A DNA stretch of 55,861 bases, taken from the IMG/VR virus record IMGVR_UViG_3300021082_000030, positions 1-55,861 of that record. The stretch is one strand, 5' to 3'. Source of the stretch: a virus. Taxonomy: Duplodnaviria > Caudoviricetes. The first letter of the stretch is position 1. Each line of letters begins with the position of its first letter. Position numbers and translations under genes: made by a program. The notes below the pieces were generated by a model. The model was not told where the DNA came from. It made no database searches and saw only the letters and a program-made list of their open reading frames with translations. This document shows positions 814-32,443 of the stretch, piece after piece.

Positions 814-3048
814 CTACCAAGTGACGCCGGCCATCCACGCGACCACGCCAGTGCGCCGCAGTGTCCAGTTGAGCGGCATGATCAACCGCAACGCCATAGA
901 GTCGGTCTGCCAGAGAGAACGCGTGGGCGCGGCGACGGTTGCCGGCGAGCCGGCGGTGCCGATCGCGAGCGGCGTCGTGTCCTCCATGTGCAGCGTCGCC
1001 TGATCGGAGATTTCGAACCGGGGAGCTTCGCCGCCCACCGAAACGAAATCAGCCGCATCGAGCGCAATGATGGTGCCGACGGGCACGGTGCCCGCCGCGA
1101 TGATCGGATAGGTCAGCAACTGATTGCGGCCCACCTCTTCCTTGAACGGGAACGCGCCGGTGCCCGGTGCGCTGACCAGCGACAGCGACAGCTTCTGCGC
1201 CGGGTTGATCAGCCACACCATCTTGCGGACGTTGCCGTTGGTGCCAGTCATCAGTGCGCCGGCGAGCTTTTGCAGATCGCCCACCACCGCAGCGAAGCCG
1301 CCGCCAGCCGTTGGCGTCAAGCCAGCGACGCCGTTGAGCAGTCCAGCCGGACGCACTGTCGTGGCCGGGTTGGCATCGAGCAGCACGGAGTCGATCGACA
1401 CCGCCGTGTCCTGCTTGATCGCATCACGCAGCAAGCCCTCGATCGCCGGCACGCTGTGTTCGTCGATCTCGCGGGTCCACGTCGTGATCACCGCCATTTT
1501 CTTCGGCGTGAGCGTCGCCGCCGTGAACGCACCCTGACGCACCGGGATCGGCGCGCCCTCACCGACGAACGATCCTGCAATCGTCGGAGTAAGCGAGCGC
1601 GTCGGCACCACGATCTTGCCGTTGCGACCGAACGACAGAGACAAGCCCTGCGCCGACAGCGACGGATAGACCACGTTCGGATAGAGCGGCTCAAGGAAGT
1701 CGGCGTTGACTTGCTGGATCAGTTCAGCGGCCCAGCCAACAACCGATGTCATTGCCGGCGCGGTGGCCGCCTTTGACGTGTAGTCGATGAACGCCTTGGT
1801 CGCTTCGTCATCACCGTAGATCGCCTTGCGCATGTCGTCGACGTTCCTGCGCTCGCGGTGTGCGAACAAACGCACCACGCCATCGCGCACGAGGTAGTCG
1901 ATCGGATCGATCTGCTTCGGCTTGAAGCCGAACGGCCGAGCCGCAGCGCGCGCGGGAGCGAGCGTGAGGACGTTGCCGTTGTCGTTGTTGTCGCCGTTCG
2001 CCGAGAGCAACAGATTCTTCTCGGAGTCCTTGAGCGACGCTAAGCCCTTTTCTTCCTGCTTGATCCTCGCGTTCAGTTCGTTGGTGACCTCAAGTTCGGC
2101 ATCGCTGACATCGCTGTCGTCGATGTTCTTGAGATGATCGGTTAGCTTGTCACGCAGAGCGACGATGCGCGCCTGCGAGTCCGTGATCCTTTGTGCAAAA
2201 GCAGACATGGATTTTCCCATTATGGGAGACGTTTCGGCGGGCTTGCCGGTGAGGCTCCGACGAAGATCGACCACGCCCCGGCTGCCGGGCTTGGCAAAGA
2301 CGAGATCGACTGTGTCGTTGGAGATGTTGAGAGACTTGGCGACGGCGAGAGCGTTCGGATTCGCCGGCACGGTGACCAGCGAACACTCGACCAACTCCAT
2401 CCGCTTGAAACGATTGCCAGCGAACGGATCGCCCTTGACCAGCGGTTCGGCTTCGAGCGCGTGAAAGCCGACGCTGACCGCCTTGATCACGTCATGATCG
2501 ATCAGCGCGCGAATCTCATCGATGCGCTGCGACTTGCCTTCCGGCAAAAGATTGAGCTTGCCGCGAAGCTTGCCGTCCTTGATCTGGATGTCGGACCATG
2601 TGCCGATCGGCAGACCGCTGTTGTGATTGTATAACGCGATCGGATTTTTTTTGAAGTTGTCGAGTTGCCAGCCGGTCGACAGGATGATGTCGTTCATGCG
2701 ATCCGGCGTCTCATCCGACATGATGAACTCGCGGTTCACCACCGGCTCGGCGTGCGTTTTGCGCACCAGCTTGCCGGCTCCGCTCTTGGTGGTCTGCTTG
2801 GCGCTGCGGTTCTCGGCCCAGATCACGCGGCACTCTTCCGCGTCTTCGCCGTCCTCTTCGCAGCGATCCATGAAGTCGGAAAATTCTTCGTCGTCGGCGG
2901 GCGTCAGCGCCTTGTCTTTTTCGCGAAACATGGTGAGGCAGGCAGCGACCGCCTGCTCGTTGTCGCGCTTGCCGTCGCCCATCATGTCGGGCACGCAGCG
3001 CTTCATGAAATCGGCTTGGCTCTCGTCCTTGTTCGGCTTCATCGGCAT
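814..3048 (-). CDS. Fused HK97-type prohead protease and major capsid protein
   Basis: Protease motifs (DRMNDII, NPIALYNH, KAVSVGF, ELVECSLVTVPANP), a coiled-coil delta domain, then capsid motifs (FVGEGAPIP, LTPKKMA, SLWQTDSMALR). Confidence 0.93.
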   Translation of the reverse strand: MPMKPNKDESQADFMKRCVPDMMGDGKRDNEQAVAACLTMFREKDKALTPADDEEFSDFMDRCEEDGEDAEECRVIWAENRSAKQTTKSGAGKLVRKTHAEPVVNREFIMSDETPDRMNDIILSTGWQLDNFKKNPIALYNHNSGLPIGTWSDIQIKDGKLRGKLNLLPEGKSQRIDEIRALIDHDVIKAVSVGFHALEAEPLVKGDPFAGNRFKRMELVECSLVTVPANPNALAVAKSLNISNDTVDLVFAKPGSRGVVDLRRSLTGKPAETSPIMGKSMSAFAQRITDSQARIVALRDKLTDHLKNIDDSDVSDAELEVTNELNARIKQEEKGLASLKDSEKNLLLSANGDNNDNGNVLTLAPARAAARPFGFKPKQIDPIDYLVRDGVVRLFAHRERRNVDDMRKAIYGDDEATKAFIDYTSKAATAPAMTSVVGWAAELIQQVNADFLEPLYPNVVYPSLSAQGLSLSFGRNGKIVVPTRSLTPTIAGSFVGEGAPIPVRQGAFTAATLTPKKMAVITTWTREIDEHSVPAIEGLLRDAIKQDTAVSIDSVLLDANPATTVRPAGLLNGVAGLTPTAGGGFAAVVGDLQKLAGALMTGTNGNVRKMVWLINPAQKLSLSLVSAPGTGAFPFKEEVGRNQLLTYPIIAAGTVPVGTIIALDAADFVSVGGEAPRFEISDQATLHMEDTTPLAIGTAGSPATVAAPTRSLWQTDSMALRLIMPLNWTLRRTGVVAWMAGVTW

Positions 3049-3144: not shown

Positions 3145-3477
3145 CTATTTCGCCGGCGGTTTTTTCTTCGCCTTGGCGCGATGCTTGTCGCGGATTTCCT
3201 GCTTGCGCTTTTCGCTGAGATTGTCCGGCGCTTTGCCCTTGCCTTTGCCTTGTTGGCTGAGCCAGTGCGGCGCGCCGGTTTCCATCTCGTGCGCGAGAAT
3301 GTCGATCTCGTGTTTCGCTGGCGGCTTGTCGTCGTCTTCCTTGTCGGGTTTCTTCGCGCGCGCAAGGCGTGCCAGTGTTTGCTCAGCTTCGGCGCGGACA
3401 ACTTCGGCGCGCTGCTTCGGAGTCAGCCGCGCCAGTGCTTCGCGGCGCGCTTTGCCGGCGAAATAGTCGCTAATCAT
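3145..3477 (-). CDS. Basic hypothetical protein, translationally coupled to the ART-domain gene
   Basis: MISDYFAGK... 110 aa; ATG overlaps the stop of the upstream gene (ATGA at 3474-3477). Confidence 0.65.
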   Translation of the reverse strand: MISDYFAGKARREALARLTPKQRAEVVRAEAEQTLARLARAKKPDKEDDDKPPAKHEIDILAHEMETGAPHWLSQQGKGKGKAPDNLSEKRKQEIRDKHRAKAKKKPPAK

Positions 3478-5285
3478 GTGTGCTTCTGCAGCGGCGTGCC
3501 GCCGAGCCCCGGTGCTTGTCCTTGCCACACATCCCAGCCCTTCCATGCGGTGCCGGCGATCACGACTTCCTGCTCGCTCTTGACGTTGATGCCATAGGCC
3601 GGGATCGACACCGCCGCCGTGCGCGGCACGACTGCGCGCAGCACGACCTTGCCGCCGCCGTGACCGCCCCAGCCGTTGGCGACGCTCAGCGCGGTCGTGG
3701 TCGACGCCGCGCCGTTGCGCTTCACGTCCATCGTCGGCAGATGCGTGAAGCTGCCGACTTTGCGGCCCGTCTCGACATGCTTGCCGAAAATCTTCTCGAC
3801 CAGCGCCTTGTCGAGCGTCAGCCCGCGATAAAGCTGAAGCTCGTCTTCGCCGGCCTTGCTGAGCAGATGCTGCGTCACTTCCCACTTGGCGCGGATCAGC
3901 GCCTTGACGCCGGCATAGCCGCCGACGCTGTCGTAAATCTTGTCGGCGCGCGCGCGTTGCGCTTCGGGATCGATATCGGCGCGGGTCTTGGCATTGAGCC
4001 GCCCGCCCAGTTCTTCGGCGGTTGCAAGCTGAATCAGCTTGCCGTCGTCCGATGTCGAGCTTTCCTTCCAGCTTTTCCAGAGCGTGTTATCGATCCGGCG
4101 CAATTCCTGATCGGACGGCACGTCGAGTCCGCGCTCGCCTAGGATTTGCTCCGAGCGCTCGCGCGACAGATAGCGCGCCAGCGCCTGCGTGCGCTTGTAA
4201 TCGTCGCCGCTGGTGTTGTTGAGTGGATCATATTTATCCGGCAATTTGTCGATCTTCATTTCGCTGATGCTGCCGCCATCGCTGTCTTGCTCATATTTTT
4301 CGAGGATGTTGGTGTTGCTCTGGACCCATTCGAACTTGTCGCTGTCCGGCATCATGCTCCAGCTTTCGGCAGCGAATTCCTTGGCGCTGTCGGCCAGATA
4401 ATCCGGCGGGTCCATGTCGCCTGCGTCACTCTCAGCTTGCTTGTCGAACGCCTTCAGCAGCGCCTTCTCGATCTCTTCGCGGGATTTGTCGCTCAGCATC
4501 TCGTGCGGCTGCAGCGGCTCGACACCGGGCAACGTACCTTGTGCGGGATCGTAGCCTTGCGGGTCTTTCAGGTAGGCGTCGTCGAAAGTTATCTCGGGAT
4601 CGTTGCGACCTTCGCCGTCGCTTTCGTATGCAACATTGATCGCGCTGAAGAGTTGATTGTTGGTATACGGGATCGGCGGCTCACCAGCTTCATCGCGCGC
4701 GTCGCGCACCGCGTCGATCGCATCGACCGCCCACTCGGGAGCGCTGACAAAATTATCAGCAAGATTGGTTTTCGCAGCGTCCAACGCCCCGCCGCTGTCG
4801 GCCCAGTTCTGCACTTCGTTGTCGTGATAGTCGGAAAAACTTTTATCAACGTATTCGTCTGCGGCTTCGGTTTGATCGTCGCTCGTCAGCGAGTCCCATT
4901 CTTCCGGCATATAGACGGTGTCTTCGTCTTCGTTGTCGTCATCAGCGCTTGGATCGCTGGTGTCCTCGACGTTGCCGATCGCCCTTTGCTCAAGCGCTTC
5001 GATCTTCGGGCGCGCGGCTTGAAATTCGCGTTCGAGCTTCACCGCTGTTTTCTGATTCCATTCGTCGCCGCCGACATCGGTCAGCTTCGGATCGAGCTTG
5101 GCGCTCTCGCTCGATGCCGCCGGCTTGTCGGATGATCCACCGCCGCCACCGCCGCCACCGCCGCCGGCGTCGGTCCATTTGCCGTCTTCGTCGCGCGGGT
5201 GCTGGCTCTCGTCATACTCGCGCCGCCGCAACAGCGGACTGTCCGCGAAAAGACGTGCCAACATTTGCGCAGCTTGTGGCGTCAT
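3474..5285 (-). CDS. Large acidic protein with a C-terminal R-S-E ADP-ribosyltransferase-like domain
   Basis: N-terminal YDESQHPRDEDGKWT motif and poly-Gly; C-terminal LYRG...STTTALSVA...SEQEVV in ART catalytic order. Confidence 0.72.
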   Translation of the reverse strand: MTPQAAQMLARLFADSPLLRRREYDESQHPRDEDGKWTDAGGGGGGGGGGSSDKPAASSESAKLDPKLTDVGGDEWNQKTAVKLEREFQAARPKIEALEQRAIGNVEDTSDPSADDDNEDEDTVYMPEEWDSLTSDDQTEAADEYVDKSFSDYHDNEVQNWADSGGALDAAKTNLADNFVSAPEWAVDAIDAVRDARDEAGEPPIPYTNNQLFSAINVAYESDGEGRNDPEITFDDAYLKDPQGYDPAQGTLPGVEPLQPHEMLSDKSREEIEKALLKAFDKQAESDAGDMDPPDYLADSAKEFAAESWSMMPDSDKFEWVQSNTNILEKYEQDSDGGSISEMKIDKLPDKYDPLNNTSGDDYKRTQALARYLSRERSEQILGERGLDVPSDQELRRIDNTLWKSWKESSTSDDGKLIQLATAEELGGRLNAKTRADIDPEAQRARADKIYDSVGGYAGVKALIRAKWEVTQHLLSKAGEDELQLYRGLTLDKALVEKIFGKHVETGRKVGSFTHLPTMDVKRNGAASTTTALSVANGWGGHGGGKVVLRAVVPRTAAVSIPAYGINVKSEQEVVIAGTAWKGWDVWQGQAPGLGGTPLQKHT

Positions 5286-8768: not shown

Positions 8769-9352
8769 ACAACCTCTAGGTTGTGCTAACTAAGGCAGAG
8801 TTCCAGACCCTCTGCCGACAGTAGCTTTATTCTACGCTAACCCATTGATAACAGGGGCTTTTTACCCCCTCATTGAAATCATTGGGTTTTTCGCGTTTGC
8901 CCCAAATGTAGGACTAAATGTGCCCTCGTAAGTGCTTGATATTGCTTATGTATTAGCGATGTGTTGCTTAATTACAACAGGTTCGAGCGCCGCCGCGCCG
9001 GGCCCTAGGTTCCATTTCAAAAATTCCGCACCGCCCCCCCGGCCCTTCGATATGGATGGGCCGTGGCTGCCCGCCCCATCCCCGCCCATGCGTTCGCTGA
9101 TCCATTTGGCCTTCGTCGTCGCTCAACCTCGCAAAACGCACCAGTGAGCATCCTAGGGGCTCGATCTCGGGCAACTCGTAACCAATTGATATTGTTATAC
9201 TATTGTTTTGAGCCTGCCACAACCTATTGATCTAATTGATCTTTTAGACTTGGCTCCAATCAGAGAGAATATCCTTCCTGACCTACCCAAACCCACATAA
9301 CCCTAGGTTGCATAACTGTGTCGCTGGACTACTCTGGCCTTGCCACAACCTA
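8769..9352. promoter_or_regulatory. Putative cos/packaging region with three IHF consensus sites
   Basis: AT-rich non-coding gap between the HNH gene and terL; exact WATCAANNNNTTR matches on the minus strand at 8838-8850, 8929-8941 and 9179-9191; C/G-rich tract near 9029-9045. Confidence 0.6.
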
Positions 9353-10192
9353 GCAGTGCATCGCATCGTTAGAGCTTTTCACTCTCTCTAGTTGCACGAG
9401 GCGAGCAGGCAGGCTGTGCAGATGGTGCCAGCGCTTCACTCCGTTGGTCAGGTCAGCGACAGCATGGGCTCGTGCAGGGTCCGCGTGCAGGCGTGCGATG
9501 CAGACATCAGCCGCAGTGTCGAGCAGCACCACAGTCGGAGAGCCGAGCGCTCGGCACCATGCGTCACGCTCGTCTTGAGTGGGCCCACCGATCACCACGA
9601 AAGCTCGGCCTTTTGTTTTCAGCACCAAGCCTCGCAGCATGGAATCCCTATAGGCCATTGCGCGTCGGAGAATCCTTCGATCGGTGTCCCATAGTCGCCC
9701 ACCGACAGCGAGCTTGCAGTCATCGAGACTGATCACTGTGTCGCCTGAGCGCTTGTGTGCGTTGACCCATGTGGTCTTGCCCGAAGCGGGAGGACCGCAC
9801 ACCAGAAAAACTGGAATTGTTGGGGCTCGCAGATGATGCGGGACAGAAAAACCGAAACGCTGAAAAGCTCCGCGCGGCAAGTTCGCTGGATGGTTTGGAT
9901 CGACCGGCCATCCGTCGGTGCCGATGGCGCGATCGTAGCCGCGACTCTCAGAAAACTTTTTCCGAACCTCGTGGCAATTCCTGCAGACGCTTTGCAGTTC
10001 ACCGCACCAAAATTTTTCCGGATCGCCGAAATGTTTTTCGATGTGGTCGACGACGTTTGCCGGCGTGACCTTGCCTTGGCGCTTGCACAGCCGGCACAGC
10101 GGCTCGATCGCCAGTTGCTGCAGCCGCATATTTTTCCAGCGACGCCAGCGATACCATTTTGTCCAAGGCGCTGTTGTCTCGATCGGCTTCAT
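9350..10192 (-). CDS. Packaging-type HNH endonuclease fused to a P-loop kinase-like domain
   Basis: EPLCRLC...VVDHI...LQSVCRNCH, then GTDGWPVDPNHP, then LVCGPPASGKTT...ISLDD. Confidence 0.8.
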   Translation of the reverse strand: MKPIETTAPWTKWYRWRRWKNMRLQQLAIEPLCRLCKRQGKVTPANVVDHIEKHFGDPEKFWCGELQSVCRNCHEVRKKFSESRGYDRAIGTDGWPVDPNHPANLPRGAFQRFGFSVPHHLRAPTIPVFLVCGPPASGKTTWVNAHKRSGDTVISLDDCKLAVGGRLWDTDRRILRRAMAYRDSMLRGLVLKTKGRAFVVIGGPTQDERDAWCRALGSPTVVLLDTAADVCIARLHADPARAHAVADLTNGVKRWHHLHSLPARLVQLERVKSSNDAMHC

Positions 10193-10272
10193 GCGAGCGG
10201 ACGCGCGGCGATGACGACAAGGACGCCGGTGAGCAGGACGATCGCGAGCCACGGGACGAGATCGGCGATCAT
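10189..10272 (-). CDS. 27-aa membrane peptide
   Basis: MIADLVPWLAIVLLTGVLVVIAARPLA; its stop overlaps the HNH start. Confidence 0.4.
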   Translation of the reverse strand: MIADLVPWLAIVLLTGVLVVIAARPLA

Positions 10273-10277
10273 GTGAG

Positions 10278-10442
10278 CTACCAGCGCTTGAGCGCATCCA
10301 TGAACGTCATATCGGGCACGTTGCCTTCGTAGCGTTTTTCATCGTTGCGCACGGTGGCTTCGGACCCGAGCCGGATGGCGCACCAGTAGACAAGGCGGCG
10401 CGGGAGCAGCCACGCGATGATGATGGTGAGGCGCTCGATCAT
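10278..10442 (-). CDS. Small hypothetical protein
   Basis: MIERLTIIIAWLLPRRLVYWCAIR... first ORF after the putative late leader. Confidence 0.55.
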   Translation of the reverse strand: MIERLTIIIAWLLPRRLVYWCAIRLGSEATVRNDEKRYEGNVPDMTFMDALKRW

Positions 10443-25976: not shown

Positions 25977-26293
25977 TTATTTTCGGCTTCGGCAACGCCT
26001 GATCCATCGATGCTCTCGCACTTCAACTTTGTTAATTCGTTTTCAAAAACGCCCGTTGATCCTAGAGTCAAGTGCGCGAAAATTTTTTGCCGAGCTAATA
26101 AACATCGGCCTTCGCGCGATCGCGATTCAGCAAAACCGAAAAAACCGCGGACCCCATTTGCTAGGATGGTGTCACGTCGCGAGCAATGACGTTCGCGGCG
26201 GGTTGTTTGAAATGTGAATCAAACAGAAAGAACCCGGAGCGCTGTCACGCCCCGGGTCAAGGAAGCTGCAAACCCAATAGGAGAAAGCCTAAC

Positions 26294-26782
26294 ATGACCA
26301 CTCTACCACTACGCGAACGCCGACACCAGCAAGCGCTTAAAGATCGCACCCGGCTGGAACGGCAACGCGACGAAGCACTCGACAAGCTCGCGCGCATCAC
26401 CGGCAAGCTGAAGACGGTGAGCCGATCGATCGAGCGATACGAACGAACGCCGACGCCCTTGGCTGCAACGCCCACGGTGCCGGCGAACGTCGAGCCGCCG
26501 GCGTCGACACCAGTGCCGCAAGCAGCCGCACCAGTGACCGCGCCGGCGAGCTTGGACGAAATCCCGACGTTCCTCGATCGCCGCAAGGCTGCAGAGGAAA
26601 GGGACGCTGCAGCGCGCGCCGCGATCGAAGCGGCGAACGCCGAGCAGAAGAAAGCGAAAGCCCGCGTGCGGATCGAAAAGCTCAAGGTGCGGCAAGAGAA
26701 GCTGCACGCGAAGCTGACCGGGGCGACCCGGGCGATGCCGCTCACCGGGCGGGCTGCGCTCGAAAAGATCAGAGCGGGATAA
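26294..26782 (+). CDS. Basic hypothetical protein
   Basis: AGGAG RBS, followed by a strong terminator. Confidence 0.7.
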   Translation: MTTLPLRERRHQQALKDRTRLERQRDEALDKLARITGKLKTVSRSIERYERTPTPLAATPTVPANVEPPASTPVPQAAAPVTAPASLDEIPTFLDRRKAAEERDAAARAAIEAANAEQKKAKARVRIEKLKVRQEKLHAKLTGATRAMPLTGRAALEKIRAG

Positions 26783-26802
26783 AGTAAGGTTACAAACACG
26801 GC

Positions 26803-26829
26803 AAAGCCGCCCTTCGGGGCGGCTTTTTT
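26803..26829 (+). terminator. Rho-independent terminator
   Basis: AAAGCCGCCC-TTCG-GGGCGGCTTTTTT. Confidence 0.9.
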
Positions 26830-26878
26830 CTTGTGTTTTCAGGCACTTAAGAAAGGTGAAAAAAGTCTGCCCCACCTC

Positions 26879-26907
26879 TTGCGTGTCACTTCATGTGACA
26901 TTAGGTT
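26879..26907 (+). promoter_or_regulatory. Sigma70-like promoter with a palindromic operator in the spacer
   Basis: TTGCGT-17 bp-TAGGTT; TGTCAC-N5-GTGACA at 26884-26900. Confidence 0.6.
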
Positions 26908-26913
26908 GTGGGC

Positions 26914-27160
26914 TGTTGATGAGTTGTTTGGTTGCCCCGGCGGGGCGGAAAGGACGAGATCGAAACCACTGGTTACCGGCCACGAGCCACGCGGGACAGG
27001 GCAGTCAGCACCGCGAAAAGCACGATCCGAAAAGTGCATGCAGACCATACCGCCCGCGTCGACTTCTCTGGAACGTAAACCGAGAGATAGATGCTCCCCG
27101 CACCACCGGCTGAGACACGCCGGCGAGTCAGTCGGGGCAACAACAAATCTACAATTCAAA
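26914..27160 (+). ncRNA. Putative structured non-coding RNA (~250 nt), family not recognised
   Basis: 11-bp closing helix 26931-26941/27131-27141 with flanking extension, several internal helices, T-loop-like CUGAGA and CGAAA loops, no convincing ORF. Confidence 0.6.
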
Positions 27161-27161
27161 C

Positions 27162-27204
27162 GTGAACAGTAAGCGGGGCCTTCGGGCCCCGTCATAGTGT
27201 TCAT
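27162..27204 (+). promoter_or_regulatory. Long hairpin with GTAA/CATAG internal loop (RNase III-like site), copy 1
   Basis: GTGAACA-GTAA-GCGGGGCC-TTCG-GGCCCCGT-CATAG-TGTTCAT. Confidence 0.55.
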
Positions 27205-27251
27205 CCGAACACCGCGCCTCGCAACGGCGCAACTCAAATGGAGAACTGAAA

Positions 27252-28277
27252 ATGACTGCTCAGCTAAACGAAGTTGAATGCACGATCGCGGACGCGGCTG
27301 TGCTGCTCGAACGGCAACTAGACAAGGGACGCCCGGTGATGATGTGGGGCCCTCCCGGCGTCGGCAAGTCGGCGATCGTCTGGCAGCTTGGTGCCAAGCG
27401 CGACCGCAAGGTGATCGAGTATCGCGCCAACTTGCGCGAGCCGGTCGACGTGCGCGGCATCCCGGTGCCTGATCTCAAAAGCGGCGTCACCCGCTGGCTG
27501 GTGCCGGACGAACTGCCGCGCGCCGATCGCGATGGCGAGTTCGGCTATCTGTTCCTCGACGAGATCAACACGGCATCGCCGCAGATGATGGCGGTGCTGT
27601 TCGGTCTTGTTCTCGATCGGCGCGTCGGCGAATACGAACTGCCGCCGGGCTGGCAGATCGTCGCCGCCGGCAACCGCGTGAGCGATCGCGCGGCTGCGCA
27701 GCGGATGCCGACGGCATTGCGCAACCGCTTCTCACACTTGACCGTGCTGCCTGACGTGAACGCGTGGGCGGTGTGGGCGAACGGTGCCGGCATCGCGCCG
27801 GAAATGGTGGCCTTCATCCGGCTGCGCCGCGAACTGATCCACCGCATGCCGCGCGGTGATGAGAACGCCTTCCCGACACCGCGATCGCTGGTCGCGGCTG
27901 CGGACTTCGTCGACGTGCCGAGCCTCTCGATGCGTCAGAAGCTTTTCGCCATGCACGTCGGCAACGATGTCGCTGGCGAGTTGAACGGCTTCATCGAGCT
28001 TTATCAATCGCTCGGTTCGCTCGACGACATCATCGCCGATCCCGACAAAGCGACGGTGCCCACCGAGCCTTCACAACTCTACGCGGTTTGCACCGGCCTT
28101 GCCCGTCTCGCGACGCGCAAGAACTGGGCGCAAGTCGTGAAGTATGCCGAGCGGCTGAAGGGCGAGCATCAAGTGTTGCTCGTGCATGACGCCGTGATGC
28201 GCGACCCGAAGCTGAAAGAGACGGCAGCCTATAGCAAGTGGGCCGTCGCCAATCAGGGCGCGCTCTTGCAATCGTGA
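27252..28277 (+). CDS. MoxR/CobS-like AAA+ ATPase
   Basis: WGPPGVGKS, LFLDEIN, IVAAGN, ALRNRF, FPTPRS. Confidence 0.9.
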   Translation: MTAQLNEVECTIADAAVLLERQLDKGRPVMMWGPPGVGKSAIVWQLGAKRDRKVIEYRANLREPVDVRGIPVPDLKSGVTRWLVPDELPRADRDGEFGYLFLDEINTASPQMMAVLFGLVLDRRVGEYELPPGWQIVAAGNRVSDRAAAQRMPTALRNRFSHLTVLPDVNAWAVWANGAGIAPEMVAFIRLRRELIHRMPRGDENAFPTPRSLVAAADFVDVPSLSMRQKLFAMHVGNDVAGELNGFIELYQSLGSLDDIIADPDKATVPTEPSQLYAVCTGLARLATRKNWAQVVKYAERLKGEHQVLLVHDAVMRDPKLKETAAYSKWAVANQGALLQS

Positions 28278-28319
28278 GCAGTAAGGGCGGCGCTACATGC
28301 GCCGCCCCATAGTGCCCAC
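28274..28319 (+). promoter_or_regulatory. Long hairpin with GTAA/CATAG internal loop, copy 2
   Basis: GTGAGCA-GTAA-GGGCGGCGC-TACAT-GCGCCGCCC-CATAG-TGCCCAC. Confidence 0.55.
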
Positions 28320-28369
28320 AAGCGACACTCGCCGGCGCAACCGGCGCAAACCCAAATGGAGTCACAATC

Positions 28370-29284
28370 ATGAACGCGAAAAAGATCGCCTCGCCGCTGT
28401 CGCGGAAGGCAACGCTGGTGTCGGTCGACATCAGCCAATGGACGGCCCGCAAGCTCGACAAGCGGGTGACCGACAAGGTCAACCGCGATCACCACGCCAG
28501 CGACGACGCTGGCCGCTACCACAAGCTGCTGATCGAGGCGAAGCGCTTAGAGTCGATCAACTCGATCGTCGCGCAGGCGCGCCGGCTGCACTACACGATG
28601 ACCAAGCCGTGGGCCGATGAGGGCCTGCGCATCCTGCCGAACGTACTGCACGAAAAGTTTGCGGAGCAGTTCCGCAACCTGAAGCGCGAATTCGATCAGG
28701 CTGCCGACGACTTTTGCCGCGACTATCCGACGTTCATCGCCGAGCGCAAGCGCGCGCTCAACGGGCTCTTCAATCAATCGGACTATCCGGCGGTCGAAGA
28801 GATCAGGAGCAAGTTTCGGCTGACGACGAAGACGTTTCCTCTGCCTGAGAGCGACGACTTCCGGTCTGACGTTCTCGATGCCGACACCGTCGAAGACATC
28901 AAGGCCGAGCTTGCCGAGACTAACGATCGCGTGCTTGCCGATGCGATGACGCACACGGCGAAGCAGATCGGCGAGGTTGTCGGCCACATGGCCGAGAAGC
29001 TGAAGAACTACCCCGGCCAAAAGCCGGCCAAGGGCAAAAAGGCAGGCAAGGGTTCGCGCAGCTTTTTCTCTTACTCGCTGGTCGAGAACGTGAGAGAGCT
29101 TGCCGAGCTTCTGCCGGCCTTCAATCTCGACAACAACCCCGATCTTGCTGCGGTCACCGATCGCATCAAGAAAGAGCTTTGCACCGAAGACGCAAAGACG
29201 CTTCGCGAAAACGAAGGCGTGCGGAAGAGCGTGGCGAAATCAGCCGACGATATTCTGCGCGATGTTGAAAGCCTGCTCGGCTGA
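28370..29284 (+). CDS. DUF3150-like helical protein
   Basis: LVSVDISQWTARKLD N-terminus; position between AAA and vWA genes. Confidence 0.6.
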   Translation: MNAKKIASPLSRKATLVSVDISQWTARKLDKRVTDKVNRDHHASDDAGRYHKLLIEAKRLESINSIVAQARRLHYTMTKPWADEGLRILPNVLHEKFAEQFRNLKREFDQAADDFCRDYPTFIAERKRALNGLFNQSDYPAVEEIRSKFRLTTKTFPLPESDDFRSDVLDADTVEDIKAELAETNDRVLADAMTHTAKQIGEVVGHMAEKLKNYPGQKPAKGKKAGKGSRSFFSYSLVENVRELAELLPAFNLDNNPDLAAVTDRIKKELCTEDAKTLRENEGVRKSVAKSADDILRDVESLLG

Positions 29285-29336
29285 GAGCGCGCCGGTCGCA
29301 ACCCGGCGCTTTTTTCAAACCCAAATGGAGACGACA

Positions 29337-30770
29337 ATGCCAACGATCGACACTGCGGCGGCGCTGGCCGCCGAGCGCGTCAGCAAGGCGCGGCAAGAAC
29401 TGATCCTGACCCGCACGTTCTACGGCGTGCTGGTGAGCCAAGTGCTGGCGGTCGCATCGCGGGATTTCCCGACGATGGCGACCAACGGCAAACAGCACTA
29501 CTACAACCCGGACTTCATCAACGGGCTGCGCCAAGTCGAAGTGCTTGGCGTGCAGGCGCACGAAACCGAACACGACGCGCGCCGGCATCAGACCCGGCGC
29601 GGCACCCGCGACCCGGACGAGTGGAACGTGTGCTGCGATCTCGCGATCAACCCGGACCTGATCAAGGCCGGCTTCACCCTGCCGGAAGGCGCGCTGCTCG
29701 AATGGCGCTTCGAAGGCATGTCAGCCGAAGACATCTACCGCACCCGCGAGCTTGAGCGGCAGCCGCCACCGCCGCAGCCGCAGCAAGGCGACGGCGAAGC
29801 GGACGAAGACGACGACGCCGGCAAGCCCGGCGACGAAGACAACGATGCCGGCGACGAGGGCGACGACACCAGCGACGAAGCCGGTGAGCAGCCCGGCGAC
29901 AAGGCCGACGGAACCGACGGCGACGATGCCGACGGCGACGAAGGCGGCCAGCCGGGCGCTGGTGAGCCCGGCGAGGGCGAGGGCGGCGAGGGTAGCGGCG
30001 GCTCTCAGGAAGCCACTGGCGAGGCTGCCGGCGAAGGCGGGCAGGCTTCCAGCGGCGACCCGGGCCGTTGCGGCGAGGTTCTCGACGCGGCACCGGACGC
30101 CGCCGAGCGGGCCGACGAAGACGCGAAATGGGAGCGCGTGGTGCGCGAGGCCGCAAGCCTCGCACGCAAGCGCGGCGAGCTTCCGGGGCACGTCACCCGG
30201 GAGATCGAGCGCAACGATCACCCGCCGCAAGACTGGCGCGAGACTTTGCGCGCCTTTTTCGACGGCGGCGCGGTGACGACTGAAACGTGGTCGCGGCCAA
30301 ATCGCCGCTTCATCGGCTCGGGCTTGTATCTGCCCGGGCGCGAGCGTGACGGCGTCAACCGCGCGGCGTTCTTGGTCGACACGTCGGGCTCGATGGACAA
30401 GATCGCGCTCGCGGCGATCGGCGTCGAGGTACAGGCTGCGCTCGATGAAAACATCATCGACGAAGTCGTGGTGATCTACGGCGACACGAGAGTGACGCGC
30501 GTTGACACCTACCGGCCCGGCGACGAATGCGAGTTCGATCCGCGCGGCGGTGGCGGCACAGTGCTGGCCCCGCTGTTCGATCACGTCACCAACGAAGTCG
30601 ACGCCTCGCTGATCGTCTGCTTCACCGACGGTTACACCGACATCAACAGCAACAGCCCCGAGCCTGCTTGCCCGGTGCTGTGGGCCTTCACCGGCCTTCC
30701 GCAGGAGGTTCGCCGGCACATGGCGAACGCGCCTTGGAACGCTGCCGCGATCGATGTCGGATCGCACTGA
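29337..30770 (+). CDS. DUF2201-type HExxH metallopeptidase-vWA protein
   Basis: PTMATNG, HETEH, WNVCCDLAIN, acidic linker, MIDAS VDTSGSM...GGGT...FTDG. Confidence 0.88.
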   Translation: MPTIDTAAALAAERVSKARQELILTRTFYGVLVSQVLAVASRDFPTMATNGKQHYYNPDFINGLRQVEVLGVQAHETEHDARRHQTRRGTRDPDEWNVCCDLAINPDLIKAGFTLPEGALLEWRFEGMSAEDIYRTRELERQPPPPQPQQGDGEADEDDDAGKPGDEDNDAGDEGDDTSDEAGEQPGDKADGTDGDDADGDEGGQPGAGEPGEGEGGEGSGGSQEATGEAAGEGGQASSGDPGRCGEVLDAAPDAAERADEDAKWERVVREAASLARKRGELPGHVTREIERNDHPPQDWRETLRAFFDGGAVTTETWSRPNRRFIGSGLYLPGRERDGVNRAAFLVDTSGSMDKIALAAIGVEVQAALDENIIDEVVVIYGDTRVTRVDTYRPGDECEFDPRGGGGTVLAPLFDHVTNEVDASLIVCFTDGYTDINSNSPEPACPVLWAFTGLPQEVRRHMANAPWNAAAIDVGSH

Positions 30771-30857
30771 CCACTGCAGGGCGGCATCGCAAGGTGCCGC
30801 CTCACAGTGTTCATCCGAACACTGCCGGCGCAACCGGCTATCAAATGGAGAACGAAA

Positions 30858-31163
30858 ATGCGCTTACTTATCGCGACCGGCATCGTTGCCGGACTTCTGG
30901 CTGGCCCAGCGATCGCCGACGACAAACTGAACCAAGCCGCCGACATGGCTGCGTTTGCAATAGCCTGCCCCAGTCACTGGAATCGGCTGCCGCCTCGAAC
31001 GCAGCGGATCATCGTCGGCATCGGAGAGGACGCCGGTCGCAGCTACGACAAGGAAACGATCGAGAAAGCCGTGCGCGAGGCATACGCCAACGGCTACGAC
31101 AAGCAGGGCGAGCGCTGGTGCGTGTCGATGCAAAAGATGCTGACCGACGCTGGAAACTTTTAA
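30858..31163 (+). CDS. Small secreted protein with two cysteines
   Basis: Signal peptide MRLLIATGIVAGLLAGPAIA. Confidence 0.7.
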   Translation: MRLLIATGIVAGLLAGPAIADDKLNQAADMAAFAIACPSHWNRLPPRTQRIIVGIGEDAGRSYDKETIEKAVREAYANGYDKQGERWCVSMQKMLTDAGNF

Positions 31164-31205: not shown

Positions 31206-31475
31206 ATGTTGAAACTATCTGAAAGGGAATTGCGCGTGATCGTCGACGCGCTGACTCAGTATGTCGACAACGCGCAGGACATGGACGACCAGCCGGCGGG
31301 CGTCGCGATCGCCGAGCGGCTCACCGATGCGCTGATGCCCATCGCCTACCCGATGAGCGTCGACGCGATGCTGACGACGATCGCCGCCGTGCATGGCGAT
31401 GACGACTCTATGGCGGTGCATGAGATGATGGCAGTTGAGATGGCCGACAAGGCGAAGCGGAGGGCGGCGCGATGA
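31206..31475 (+). CDS. Hypothetical protein
   Basis: CAAATGGAG leader, 89 aa. Confidence 0.65.
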   Translation: MLKLSERELRVIVDALTQYVDNAQDMDDQPAGVAIAERLTDALMPIAYPMSVDAMLTTIAAVHGDDDSMAVHEMMAVEMADKAKRRAAR

Positions 31476-31522
31476 AGCGAAAACGCAACGAATAGCGATT
31501 TTGTTGTTGCCCCCTGAAAATT

Positions 31523-31567
31523 AAAATCCCCGGTCGAGCTTCACGCTCACCGGGGATTTTCCTTTTT
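31523..31567 (+). terminator. Terminator-like hairpin
   Basis: AAAATCCCCGGT...ACCGGGGATTTT followed by CCTTTTT. Confidence 0.7.
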
Positions 31568-31705
31568 GTGCTGTCTTTGCAACGCCTTGTCGCCAGCACT
31601 TGATGCGACACCGAGTCACAAATTTTTCATCACGCGCGCCCGACAGTAGTATCCGAAACAAGGGCGACGCGCGTTTGCTCTATTCCTTTGCAATGCGGAC
31701 TGGGA

Positions 31706-31945
31706 ATGCGCACGGCACAGTTTGTGAGACGCTCGCGCGCGAAGCTCAATCTGACGCAAGCCGAACTGGCAAAGGCACTTGGGCTCGAACGCCGCAGCAT
31801 CATGCGATACGAGAAGGGCAGCCCGTTGCAGCCGCATATTCGCTACGCCATCAAGTGGTTGGTCGCCCGCGACAAGCGACTCAAGCAACTGGCGCGGAAG
31901 CGAGCCGCACGCAAAGCCAGAATCAAAATCCCCGGTGAGCCGTAG
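31706..31945 (+). CDS. XRE-family HTH regulator, copy 1
   Basis: RAKLNLTQAELAKALGLERRSIMRYEKG. Confidence 0.8.
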   Translation: MRTAQFVRRSRAKLNLTQAELAKALGLERRSIMRYEKGSPLQPHIRYAIKWLVARDKRLKQLARKRAARKARIKIPGEP

Positions 31946-32200: not shown

Positions 32201-32443
32201 GTGAGTACGGCAGAACTTTTCACGCCGATGCCTGATGATGCTGGTTTCGTGAAACGTGCGCGTGCGAAGCTCAAGCTAACCCAAGGCGAACTAGCTGAGC
32301 AGCTTGGGCTCGAACGGCGCACCGTGATGCGCTACGAAAGAGGCGACCAGTTGCCGCCCCAGACTCGCTTTGCGATCAAGTGGCTGGTCGCCCGGGACAA
32401 GCGAAACAAGCAGAGAGCCAAGGACCGCGAGCGCGGCGACTAG
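32201..32443 (+). CDS. XRE-family HTH regulator, copy 2
   Basis: RAKLKLTQGELAEQLGLERRTVMRYERG. Confidence 0.82.
   Translation: MSTAELFTPMPDDAGFVKRARAKLKLTQGELAEQLGLERRTVMRYERGDQLPPQTRFAIKWLVARDKRNKQRAKDRERGD

Follow-up and report, generated by a model that had tools for sequence, protein, structure and literature searches.

The 55,861-nucleotide (nt) stretch of phage DNA analyzed here, which is record IMGVR_UViG_3300021082_000030 of IMG/VR at its full length (referred to here as the window), carries at positions 26914 to 27160 a piece of sequence that heads an accessory operon, and the locus raises the question of what kind of element this piece is. An earlier note on the same DNA, made from the letters alone, took it for a structured RNA of about 250 nt with tertiary contacts. 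Our analysis favors a plainer answer. The element is quite possibly, in a reading that we hold tentatively, an untranslated 5' leader of fast turnover, with ends that pair into a stem serving stability or processing and with a possible partner at the 3' end of the same transcript. A conserved RNA with tertiary structure is not supported by the evidence.

The setting of the element is largely as the earlier note described it. The terminator at 26803 to 26829 is present and was also found by a terminator scan, and the leader follows both this terminator and a promoter/operator block that is conserved, and it heads the genes for an AAA_5, a DUF3150-like, and a DUF2201-vWA protein. Positions 26914 to 27160 are the head of a self-contained operon of ~4.6 kb. 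The strings proposed as a promoter, TTGCGT (26879 to 26884) and TAGGTT (26902 to 26907) separated by 17 nt, can be read in the sequence, and each agrees with the sigma-70 consensus at 3 of 6 positions by our own count. The block from the terminator to the first conserved box of the leader is 75 to 84% identical across three lineages, namely, that of the window and two relatives, here called L001 and L170. It includes a palindrome, TGTCAC-N5-GTGACA (26884 to 26900), that occurs only once in the window. We would read the conserved block as a regulated promoter, from which transcription would start near position 26914.

The leader is non-coding, in agreement with the earlier statement that it contains no convincing open reading frame (ORF). 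Its GC content is flat, at 0.56 to 0.60 in all three codon positions of every frame, compared with 0.71 to 0.86 at third positions and 0.38 to 0.54 at second positions in the six real genes that were checked. A decayed gene was rejected on the same ground, as no frame shows a codon signal. Neither a 113-amino-acid (aa) plus-strand ORF nor a 132-aa minus-strand ORF has any relative in a set of 5.8 billion protein clusters, within searches that covered proteins of 0.55 to 1.75 times the query length. The plus-strand ORF belongs to no Pfam or PHROG family, neither long ORF gave a match where tested, and the 113-aa ORF bears no likeness to a 115-aa ORF of L001 (BLASTP E = 33). When the three leaders were compared with all collected loci by tblastx, only weak matches (E of 0.001 to 0.008) to unrelated loci were obtained.

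Relatives were sought by means of the AAA protein, the upstream protein, an alignment of AAA proteins, and DNA patterns. Among the AAA-gene relatives surveyed, a first set of 8 loci from IMG/VR was followed by one of 49, and a further 53 loci came from metagenomes and 47 from genomes. The arrangement of terminator, promoter, and leader was found in only the three lineages, the AAA proteins of which are 82 to 89% identical. The L001 type is represented by three IMG/VR and five metagenome contigs, some of which are the same records, and its leaders differ at 4 of 604 columns among five aligned copies; the L170 lineage is a single contig. Between lineages, the four-fold sites of the AAA gene are 67 to 73% identical, and the hairpin module on the right-hand side of the leader is 80 to 86% identical. 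The interiors of the leaders measure 195 nt in the window and 363 and 366 nt in the two related lineages. In global alignments of these interiors, the observed score was reached by 66, 70, and 63 of 100 shuffles, and blastn with a word size of 7 found nothing between them. Because sequence changing at the synonymous rate would still be ~70% identical, the interiors were replaced, not worn down. They are unalignable, and there is therefore no alignment on which covariation could be tested; since they are unrelated in the relatives, the loop motifs singled out in the earlier note are not conserved. In more distant relatives (AAA proteins 60 to 74% identical), the slot is occupied by a small gene in L004 and by an adjoining coding gene in L005 and L015. 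The small gene, at 1259 to 1467 of L004 (AAA protein 65% identical), encodes 69 aa and is accompanied by a module of its own.

Comparison by blastn with phage and plasmid collections found no homologue of the leader, the L170 and L001 leaders likewise had none among phages, and a search at word size 7 against sets of 108, 56, and 57 collected loci recovered only the common promoter block and the module. Pattern scans of IMG/VR returned no match to the closing-helix string, 55 stretches with two CGAAAAG motifs (none of them related), and a single stretch (L167) with the CCGGC-loop hairpin string that is alike only over the 18 nt of the pattern. The promoter/operator pattern retrieved only the four contigs already known, and a pattern combining the 3' box with the terminator brought up, besides the known lineages, L225 and L226, neither of which has a protein in common with the operon. 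Contigs from runs X1, X3, X4, and X5 are identical to the leader sequence where they cover it, with the exception of one 151-nt contig from X1, a sediment metagenome that also contains the phage. This contig matches positions 26978 to 27049 at 62 of 72 positions and has unalignable flanks; among its differences listed are 27008 G>C and 27009 C>G. Relatives of the center of the leader therefore exist in nature.

We then consider what holds the leader together. The closing helix described earlier, GTTGCCCCGGC (26931 to 26941) with GTCGGGGCAAC (27131 to 27141) and the extension TTGTT/AACAA, is present as a long-range helix that closes the leader. When the whole leader is folded, the closing stem extends beyond what the earlier note described, with positions 26920 to 26941 pairing with 27131 to 27158 through 22 base pairs (bp) in three segments at pair probabilities of 0.60 to 0.99. 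The element as a whole folds with a z of -2.06, a stability matched by 9 of 300 shuffles, and 1 of 36 other 247-nt pieces of the genome (mean z of -0.44, standard deviation of 1.02) is as low. Once the closing helix is removed, the remaining 189 nt (26942 to 27130) have a z of only -0.35, and 109 of 300 shuffles fold as well. The predicted long stem is the one robust feature of the leader, and the inner hairpins are what such sequence yields anyway. As for the inner pairings listed in the earlier note, CCGGC-TGAGACAC-GCCGG (27106 to 27123) and the GCAC/GTGC stem with two CGAAAA motifs are present as strings. So are ACGCGGG (26989 to 26995) with CCCGCGT (27053 to 27059), GGGCGG/CCGCCC, and GCGTC/GATGC around TCTC/GAGA, but the interior fold to which they would belong is no better than that of shuffles.

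Three short boxes are conserved. Box a, rich in UUG, is close to the 5' end (TTGTTTGGTTGC in the window, TTGATTGGTTGC in L001). Box b, rich in CAA, makes up the 3' arm (GGGGCAACAACAAA in the window, GGGCAACAACAGAG in L170). Box c stands at the other end of the operon, 14 nt upstream of the operon terminator hairpin, where GTTGTTGCC is found in all three lineages; in 401,035 nt of the relatives' loci, this 9-mer occurs only at such operon-end sites. A segment of box b (27134 to 27147) is the exact complement of box c (31500 to 31513). The resulting b:c helix is 14 bp long in both the window and L170, was reached by 0 of 200 shuffles in either, and includes a double change at one position (A:U in the window, G:C in L170). 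The two untranslated ends of the transcript are thus significantly complementary in the window and in L170, and they are not in L001. The calculated duplex energies in the window are -30.3 kcal/mol for a:b and -30.0 kcal/mol for c:b, while those in L170 are -12.2 and -29.6 kcal/mol, respectively. Judged by these energies, it is the b:c complementarity that appears to be the conserved relation, with an a:b stem that is strong only in this phage.

On the leader reading, the element would act in cis. The stem would bury the 5' end of the mRNA, which could protect it from 5'-end-dependent decay or offer a site for double-strand cleavage, and the stem and the first intergenic hairpin together would set the AAA cistron apart from the leader. 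The CAA box might pair with either the 5' box or the 3' box in turn, thereby linking the transcript ends or allowing them to be trimmed jointly. The intergenic hairpin is part of a module of ~95 nt that precedes most operon genes in all lineages and consists, in order, of TGA.CA (in which the gene before it has its stop codon), a GC hairpin, a second hairpin (CAtAGTG..CA/..CAC), a third one whose loop is CGCAAC, and AAATGGAG ahead of the start codon. An alignment of 15 full copies recovered the first hairpin as a consensus, with compensatory changes at 5 of its 9 pairs, and neither the window nor the loci of 20 relatives contained a match of the hairpin module to Rfam at the gathering score. 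The earlier note had the RNA possibly released by a processing hairpin at 27162 to 27204. Since this hairpin belongs to the repeated module family, processing there is plausible, but the cleavage itself is something that we infer. In the L170 lineage, the Shine-Dalgarno sequence GGAG sits in the loop of a hairpin, GGAAAT-GGAG-ATTTCC (3669 to 3684, pair probability of 0.95), and such a hairpin recurs before each of five genes listed in that lineage (L173).

Several observations weigh against the leader reading as a whole or against parts of it. Although both promoter strings are present, a consensus scan of positions 26000 to 28000 found no sigma-70-like promoter, and we infer from which promoter, at what position, and on which strand transcription begins. 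The two strands fold equally well (z of -2.52 for the minus strand versus -2.55 for the plus strand). The 11-bp helix, although the best contiguous helix in the element, is equaled by 32 of 300 dinucleotide shuffles in length and by 11 of 300 in hydrogen-bond score, and it is only marginally unusual. When the 5' arm was tested for duplexes with the remainder of the leader, the result was not significant (286 and 260 of 1,000 shuffles did as well); for the window, this test was so permissive as to be of no use. In full-leader folds of the relatives, box b of L170 pairs locally and the long-range helices of L001 have a probability of ~0.1; going by these models, the relatives do not keep the closing stem itself. 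L001 has box c and is without box b, and its best helix between the leader and the 3' end is 9 bp, a length that 79 of 200 shuffles reach. Because the window and L170 share ancestry, the putative b:c pairing has as its support one double change and two short islands that survived, and an inverted repeat at the DNA level would look the same. Finally, the ribosome-binding site is outside the b:c pairing, and box b lies ~90 nt upstream of the Shine-Dalgarno sequence (27236 to 27243) and so cannot mask it directly.

The strongest of the rival explanations, although we regard it as unlikely, holds that the leader is functionless filler at a recombination or indel hot spot between the promoter block and the first module, with helices that are chance products of GC-rich sequence. 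The turnover of the interiors is what such a hot spot would give: they were replaced at least two times while the four-fold sites diverged by only ~30%, and they vary in length from 195 to 366 nt. The protein encoded upstream is only 49 to 55% identical between lineages, which places a mosaic junction at the leader. The z of the interior, the marginal helix statistics, and the presence of a 69-aa gene or an abutting coding gene in the slot of L004, L005, and L015 all fit as well. What filler leaves unexplained is the survival of boxes a, b, and c amid unalignable sequence, with b and c complementary through a double change. Folding also speaks against it. The stem-closed domains of the relatives have z values of -2.26 (L170, 3196 to 3411) and -1.54 (L001, 2510 to 2903), and a 150-nt domain at 3436 to 3585 of L170, closed by ~19 bp, reaches -4.26 (0 of 200 shuffles); together with the -2.06 of the window, all four folded leader domains are thus negative, against a genome mean of -0.44. 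Apart from this, the L001 leader contains two tandem 40-nt units (2792 to 2871) that are 73% identical, each with a small hairpin (GCGC/GCGC versus GCAC/GTGC).

The proposal of the earlier note, a discrete structured noncoding RNA of ~250 nt (a scaffold, a tRNA binder or decoy, or an antitermination RNA) with T-loop tertiary structure that is cut from the operon transcript, is distinctly unlikely on our evidence. In its favor, the stretch is non-coding, has a long closing stem of high probability, and is followed by a hairpin of the conserved module family. The X1 contig, which differs at 10 of 72 positions, provides a relative of positions 26978 to 27049. The two leader domains of L170 are separated by a terminator-like hairpin that carries a T-run (3412 to 3435), and the second of these domains is the one with a z of -4.26; the slot can therefore hold well-folded RNA domains. 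Against these points stand the z of -0.35 for the interior of the window and the interiors of the relatives, which are unrelated in sequence and length and do not keep the loops. None of the 24 sequencing runs listed is an RNA run that contains the leader, and the five runs with at least half of the sampled words are all DNA, three of these being possible sources of the record.

The search of known families gave the discrete RNA no help either. The earlier note recognized no family, and Rfam 15 agrees, with no match at the gathering score in the whole window or in the loci of 20 relatives. When matches up to an E of 10 were admitted for positions 26780 to 27270, there were 25 weak ones, 22 of them on the terminator (26780 to 26864) and 1 on the hairpin at 27164 to 27202; the 2 inside the element were both on the minus strand (E of 2.9 and 6.2). 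At E-value thresholds, the three leaders yielded only terminator look-alikes and noise. ARAGORN called no tRNA or transfer-messenger RNA gene in the whole window. Rfam, which includes models of T-box and RNase P RNAs, had no model of a tRNA-elbow binder that matched at an E of ≤10. The general statement that paired T-loops bind tRNA elbows is correct: RNase P, T-boxes, and the L1 stalk all do so by means of interdigitated T-loops (PMC4810234). These published facts are no evidence that the loops of the leader are T-loops, and sequence alone cannot show a T-loop. The candidate loops, UGAGACAC and CGAAAAG, are in the unalignable part of the leader, and an interior that folds no better than random sequence argues against a tertiary RNA built on them.

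Other element types were considered from the same data. In an attenuation leader, a terminator would precede the first gene, and no plus-strand terminator was called between the leader and the AAA gene in the window; the hairpin at 27173 to 27192 is followed by TCATAGTG and is not a called terminator. No family of direct repeats was found in positions 26860 to 27252. A type III toxin-antitoxin RNA, a CRISPR array, and a retron were rejected for the lack of direct repeats and for the neighboring genes, which are those for the AAA, DUF3150-like, and vWA-like proteins, and an origin of replication with iterons was rejected for the lack of direct repeats.

Somewhat more doubtful than the discrete RNA is a bolder extension of the leader reading, in which the slot might hold interchangeable stem-closed RNA domains with UUG and CAA boxes, the cores of which would be under diversifying selection (for example, as decoy or guide-like RNAs that are released in the conflict between phage and host) while the CAA box would tie the ends of the mRNA together. 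The slot contains one domain in this phage, two in L170, and a different one in L001. If this were true, a phage polycistron would be regulated through pairing of its two ends.

We see only a slim chance that the element acts at the DNA level, either with boxes b and c as inverted repeats flanking an invertible or cassette-like segment of 4.4 kb or with boxes a and b as the terminal repeats of a small insertion. The 14-bp inverted repeat (27134 to 27147 and 31500 to 31513) is exact, recurs in L170, and has arms that changed together; the a/b repeat (arms of 18 nt at 26922 to 26939 and 27133 to 27150, 78% complementary) surrounds a variable interior; and that interior was replaced between lineages. 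Nevertheless, none of the 37 ORFs scanned belongs to a recombinase, invertase, or transposase family (each was scanned in one or two libraries, and the record is ~78% complete), no second copy of the leader exists in the window, among the phages and plasmids searched, or in the collected loci, and no target-site duplication is seen beside the arms when the sequence is read. The arms of the second L170 domain differ in sequence, and L001 is without box b. Contigs covering 26600 to 27500 show no joints. A short leader peptide that couples translation to the leader fold is hardly credible: the 24-codon ORF at 27091 to 27165 begins behind GAGAG and stops exactly at the module TGA, which in other copies is the stop codon of the preceding gene, but it is without the AAATGGAG-type ribosome-binding site of the operon genes and without a codon-position signal, and has no counterpart in L170 or L001 in a listing of small ORFs. 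That listing reported no ORF of at least 15 codons that closes inside the L170 leader, where an ORF opening at 3269 continues out of frame into the AAA gene.

The features of the locus are collected in Table 1.

Table 1. Features of the leader and its operon in the window
Feature	Position	Strand	Remarks
Intrinsic terminator at the end of the upstream gene block	26803-26829	+	10-bp stem and T-run; called by scan; kept in L001 and L170
Promoter-like block TTGCGT-N17-TAGGTT with palindrome TGTCAC-N5-GTGACA (likely operator)	26879-26907	+	
Putative untranslated 5' leader	26914-27160	+	
5' arm of closing stem, UUG-rich box a	26920-26941	+	TTGNTTGGTTGC common to L001 lineage
Lineage-specific interior with local hairpins and no excess folding energy	26942-27130	+	z = -0.35; unalignable with L001 and L170
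3' arm of closing stem, CAA-rich box b	27131-27158	+	27134-27147 complements 31500-31513 exactly
First intergenic module copy: TGA.CA, H1 (27173-27192), H2 (27197-27212), H3 (27214-27230, loop TCGCAAC)	27160-27251	+	
Module copies	27160-27251, 28272-28369, 30766-30857; shorter before 29337 and 31206	+	Also in L173, L175, and L004
Shine-Dalgarno sequence AAATGGAG of AAA gene	27236-27243	+	Within first module copy
AAA_5/MoxR-like ATPase (phrog_1297)	27252-28277	+	Family match
DUF3150-like protein	28370-29284	+	Weak match, under Pfam cutoff
DUF2201_N + DUF2201 (metallopeptidase-like + vWA-like)	29337-30770	+	Family matches
101-aa protein with hydrophobic N terminus (read from sequence)	30858-31163	+	No family match
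89-aa protein, last gene of the operon	31206-31475	+	
UUG-rich box c (TTTGTTGTTGCCCC), complement of box b	31500-31513	+	GTTGTTGCC kept in three lineages
Terminator hairpin CCCCGG...CCGGGG (31528-31555) with T-rich tail, operon end	31528-31569	+	Kept in L173 and L175

The record spans 55,861 bases, with an estimated completeness of 78%. Family scans of the window identified genes for a tail sheath, a baseplate, a tape measure, a portal, a large terminase, and a major head protein, and the source phage is therefore myovirus-like as judged from its structural genes. A plus-strand block of early or middle genes lies upstream of the operon and encodes RecT-like, ParB-like, and HNH proteins along with unknowns, the last ORF being one of 198 aa (26186 to 26782). 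Within the operon, we set the start of the DUF2201 gene at the ATG behind the AAATGGAG at 29323 to 29330, an ATG that shares the frame of the ORF opening at 29100. The window has six AAATGGAG sites, every one of them on the plus strand between 27236 and 32014, and ~1.2 would be expected by chance. The terminator hairpin at the end of the operon (31528 to 31555) was read from the sequence and was missed by the terminator scan, probably because its loop exceeds the length rule of the scan. The AAA/vWA pair is widespread in phages, with relatives in 873 phage records, all at <60% identity. Our search of the literature on DUF3150 found nothing relevant, that on DUF2201 and phages nothing on RNA, and that on MoxR/vWA proteins in phages nothing on leaders.

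Some further features of the window were recorded. Two paralogous genes for Xre-type helix-turn-helix proteins (31688 to 31945 and 32201 to 32443) adjoin the far end of the operon and contain a common 167-nt repeat that is 78% identical (31721 to 31887 and 32246 to 32412). The pair are candidate regulators of the operator palindrome at 26884 to 26900. The vWA-like gene contains, at 29792 to 29946, overlapping direct repeats rich in GAC and GAA (a 32-nt unit repeated six times) that by eye correspond to an acidic stretch. On the minus strand, a 744-aa ORF (814 to 3048) matches major head protein and head maturation protease families alike, and a 315-aa ORF (9350 to 10297) matches small terminase and HNH endonuclease families alike.

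If the leader reading is true, the element is an object of an ordinary kind, an mRNA leader, with two notable features. Its interior would be replaced much faster than neighboring synonymous sites change, and one of its boxes would be the complement of a conserved box that lies at the opposite end of the same 4.6-kb transcript. The case also carries a caution, that tertiary motifs such as T-loops should not be read from single sequences, because the interior here folds like shuffles and the nearest relatives are without the motifs. The likeness to double T-loop RNAs (PMC4810234) comes down to two loops with pentamers that can be written as T-loops. The leader differs from those RNAs in having no Rfam match, candidate loops that are not conserved, and no folding excess in the interior. 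Terminal inverted repeats like those of a miniature inverted-repeat transposable element are present in the leader, but unlike such an element, it has one copy and no target-site duplication was seen. Phage morons are independent units with their own promoter and terminator that lie between phage genes; the order of terminator, promoter, genes, and terminator in the early or middle region resembles a moron, a likeness that concerns the operon and not the leader.

The possible pairing of the transcript ends invites comparison with two bacterial mRNAs. The icaR mRNA of Staphylococcus aureus is described as base pairing its 5' untranslated region with its 3' untranslated region (PMC3868564). The phage transcript is like it in that a stretch of its untranslated 5' part complements one of its untranslated 3' part, here over 14 bp. 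In icaR, the 3' untranslated region reportedly pairs with the Shine-Dalgarno region, and RNase III is said to cleave the duplex. Unlike icaR, the phage transcript has its putative 5' partner ~90 nt upstream of the Shine-Dalgarno sequence, is a polycistron of 4.6 kb, and has no such partner in one of the three lineages. In the hok mRNA, a fold-back between the 5' and 3' ends keeps the full-length form of a short toxin mRNA inert within a defined refolding pathway. Hok and the phage leader are alike in the long-range pairing of ends and in the alternative partners for one segment, and they differ in that the phage operon contains no toxin and shows no sign of 3' trimming. To our knowledge, only a few bacterial mRNAs, and no phage polycistron, are described as pairing their 5' and 3' ends. 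Stems that stabilize mRNAs or are cut by RNase III include those of the T7 early mRNAs, the lambda N leader, the rRNA precursors, and the 5' hairpin of ompA. Unlike the T7 sites, which are local hairpins, the phage stem closes an interior of 189 nt, and its cleavage is a prediction; like these systems, the phage operon combines a duplex of ~22 bp, formed by the two ends of a leader domain, with long hairpins between its cistrons.

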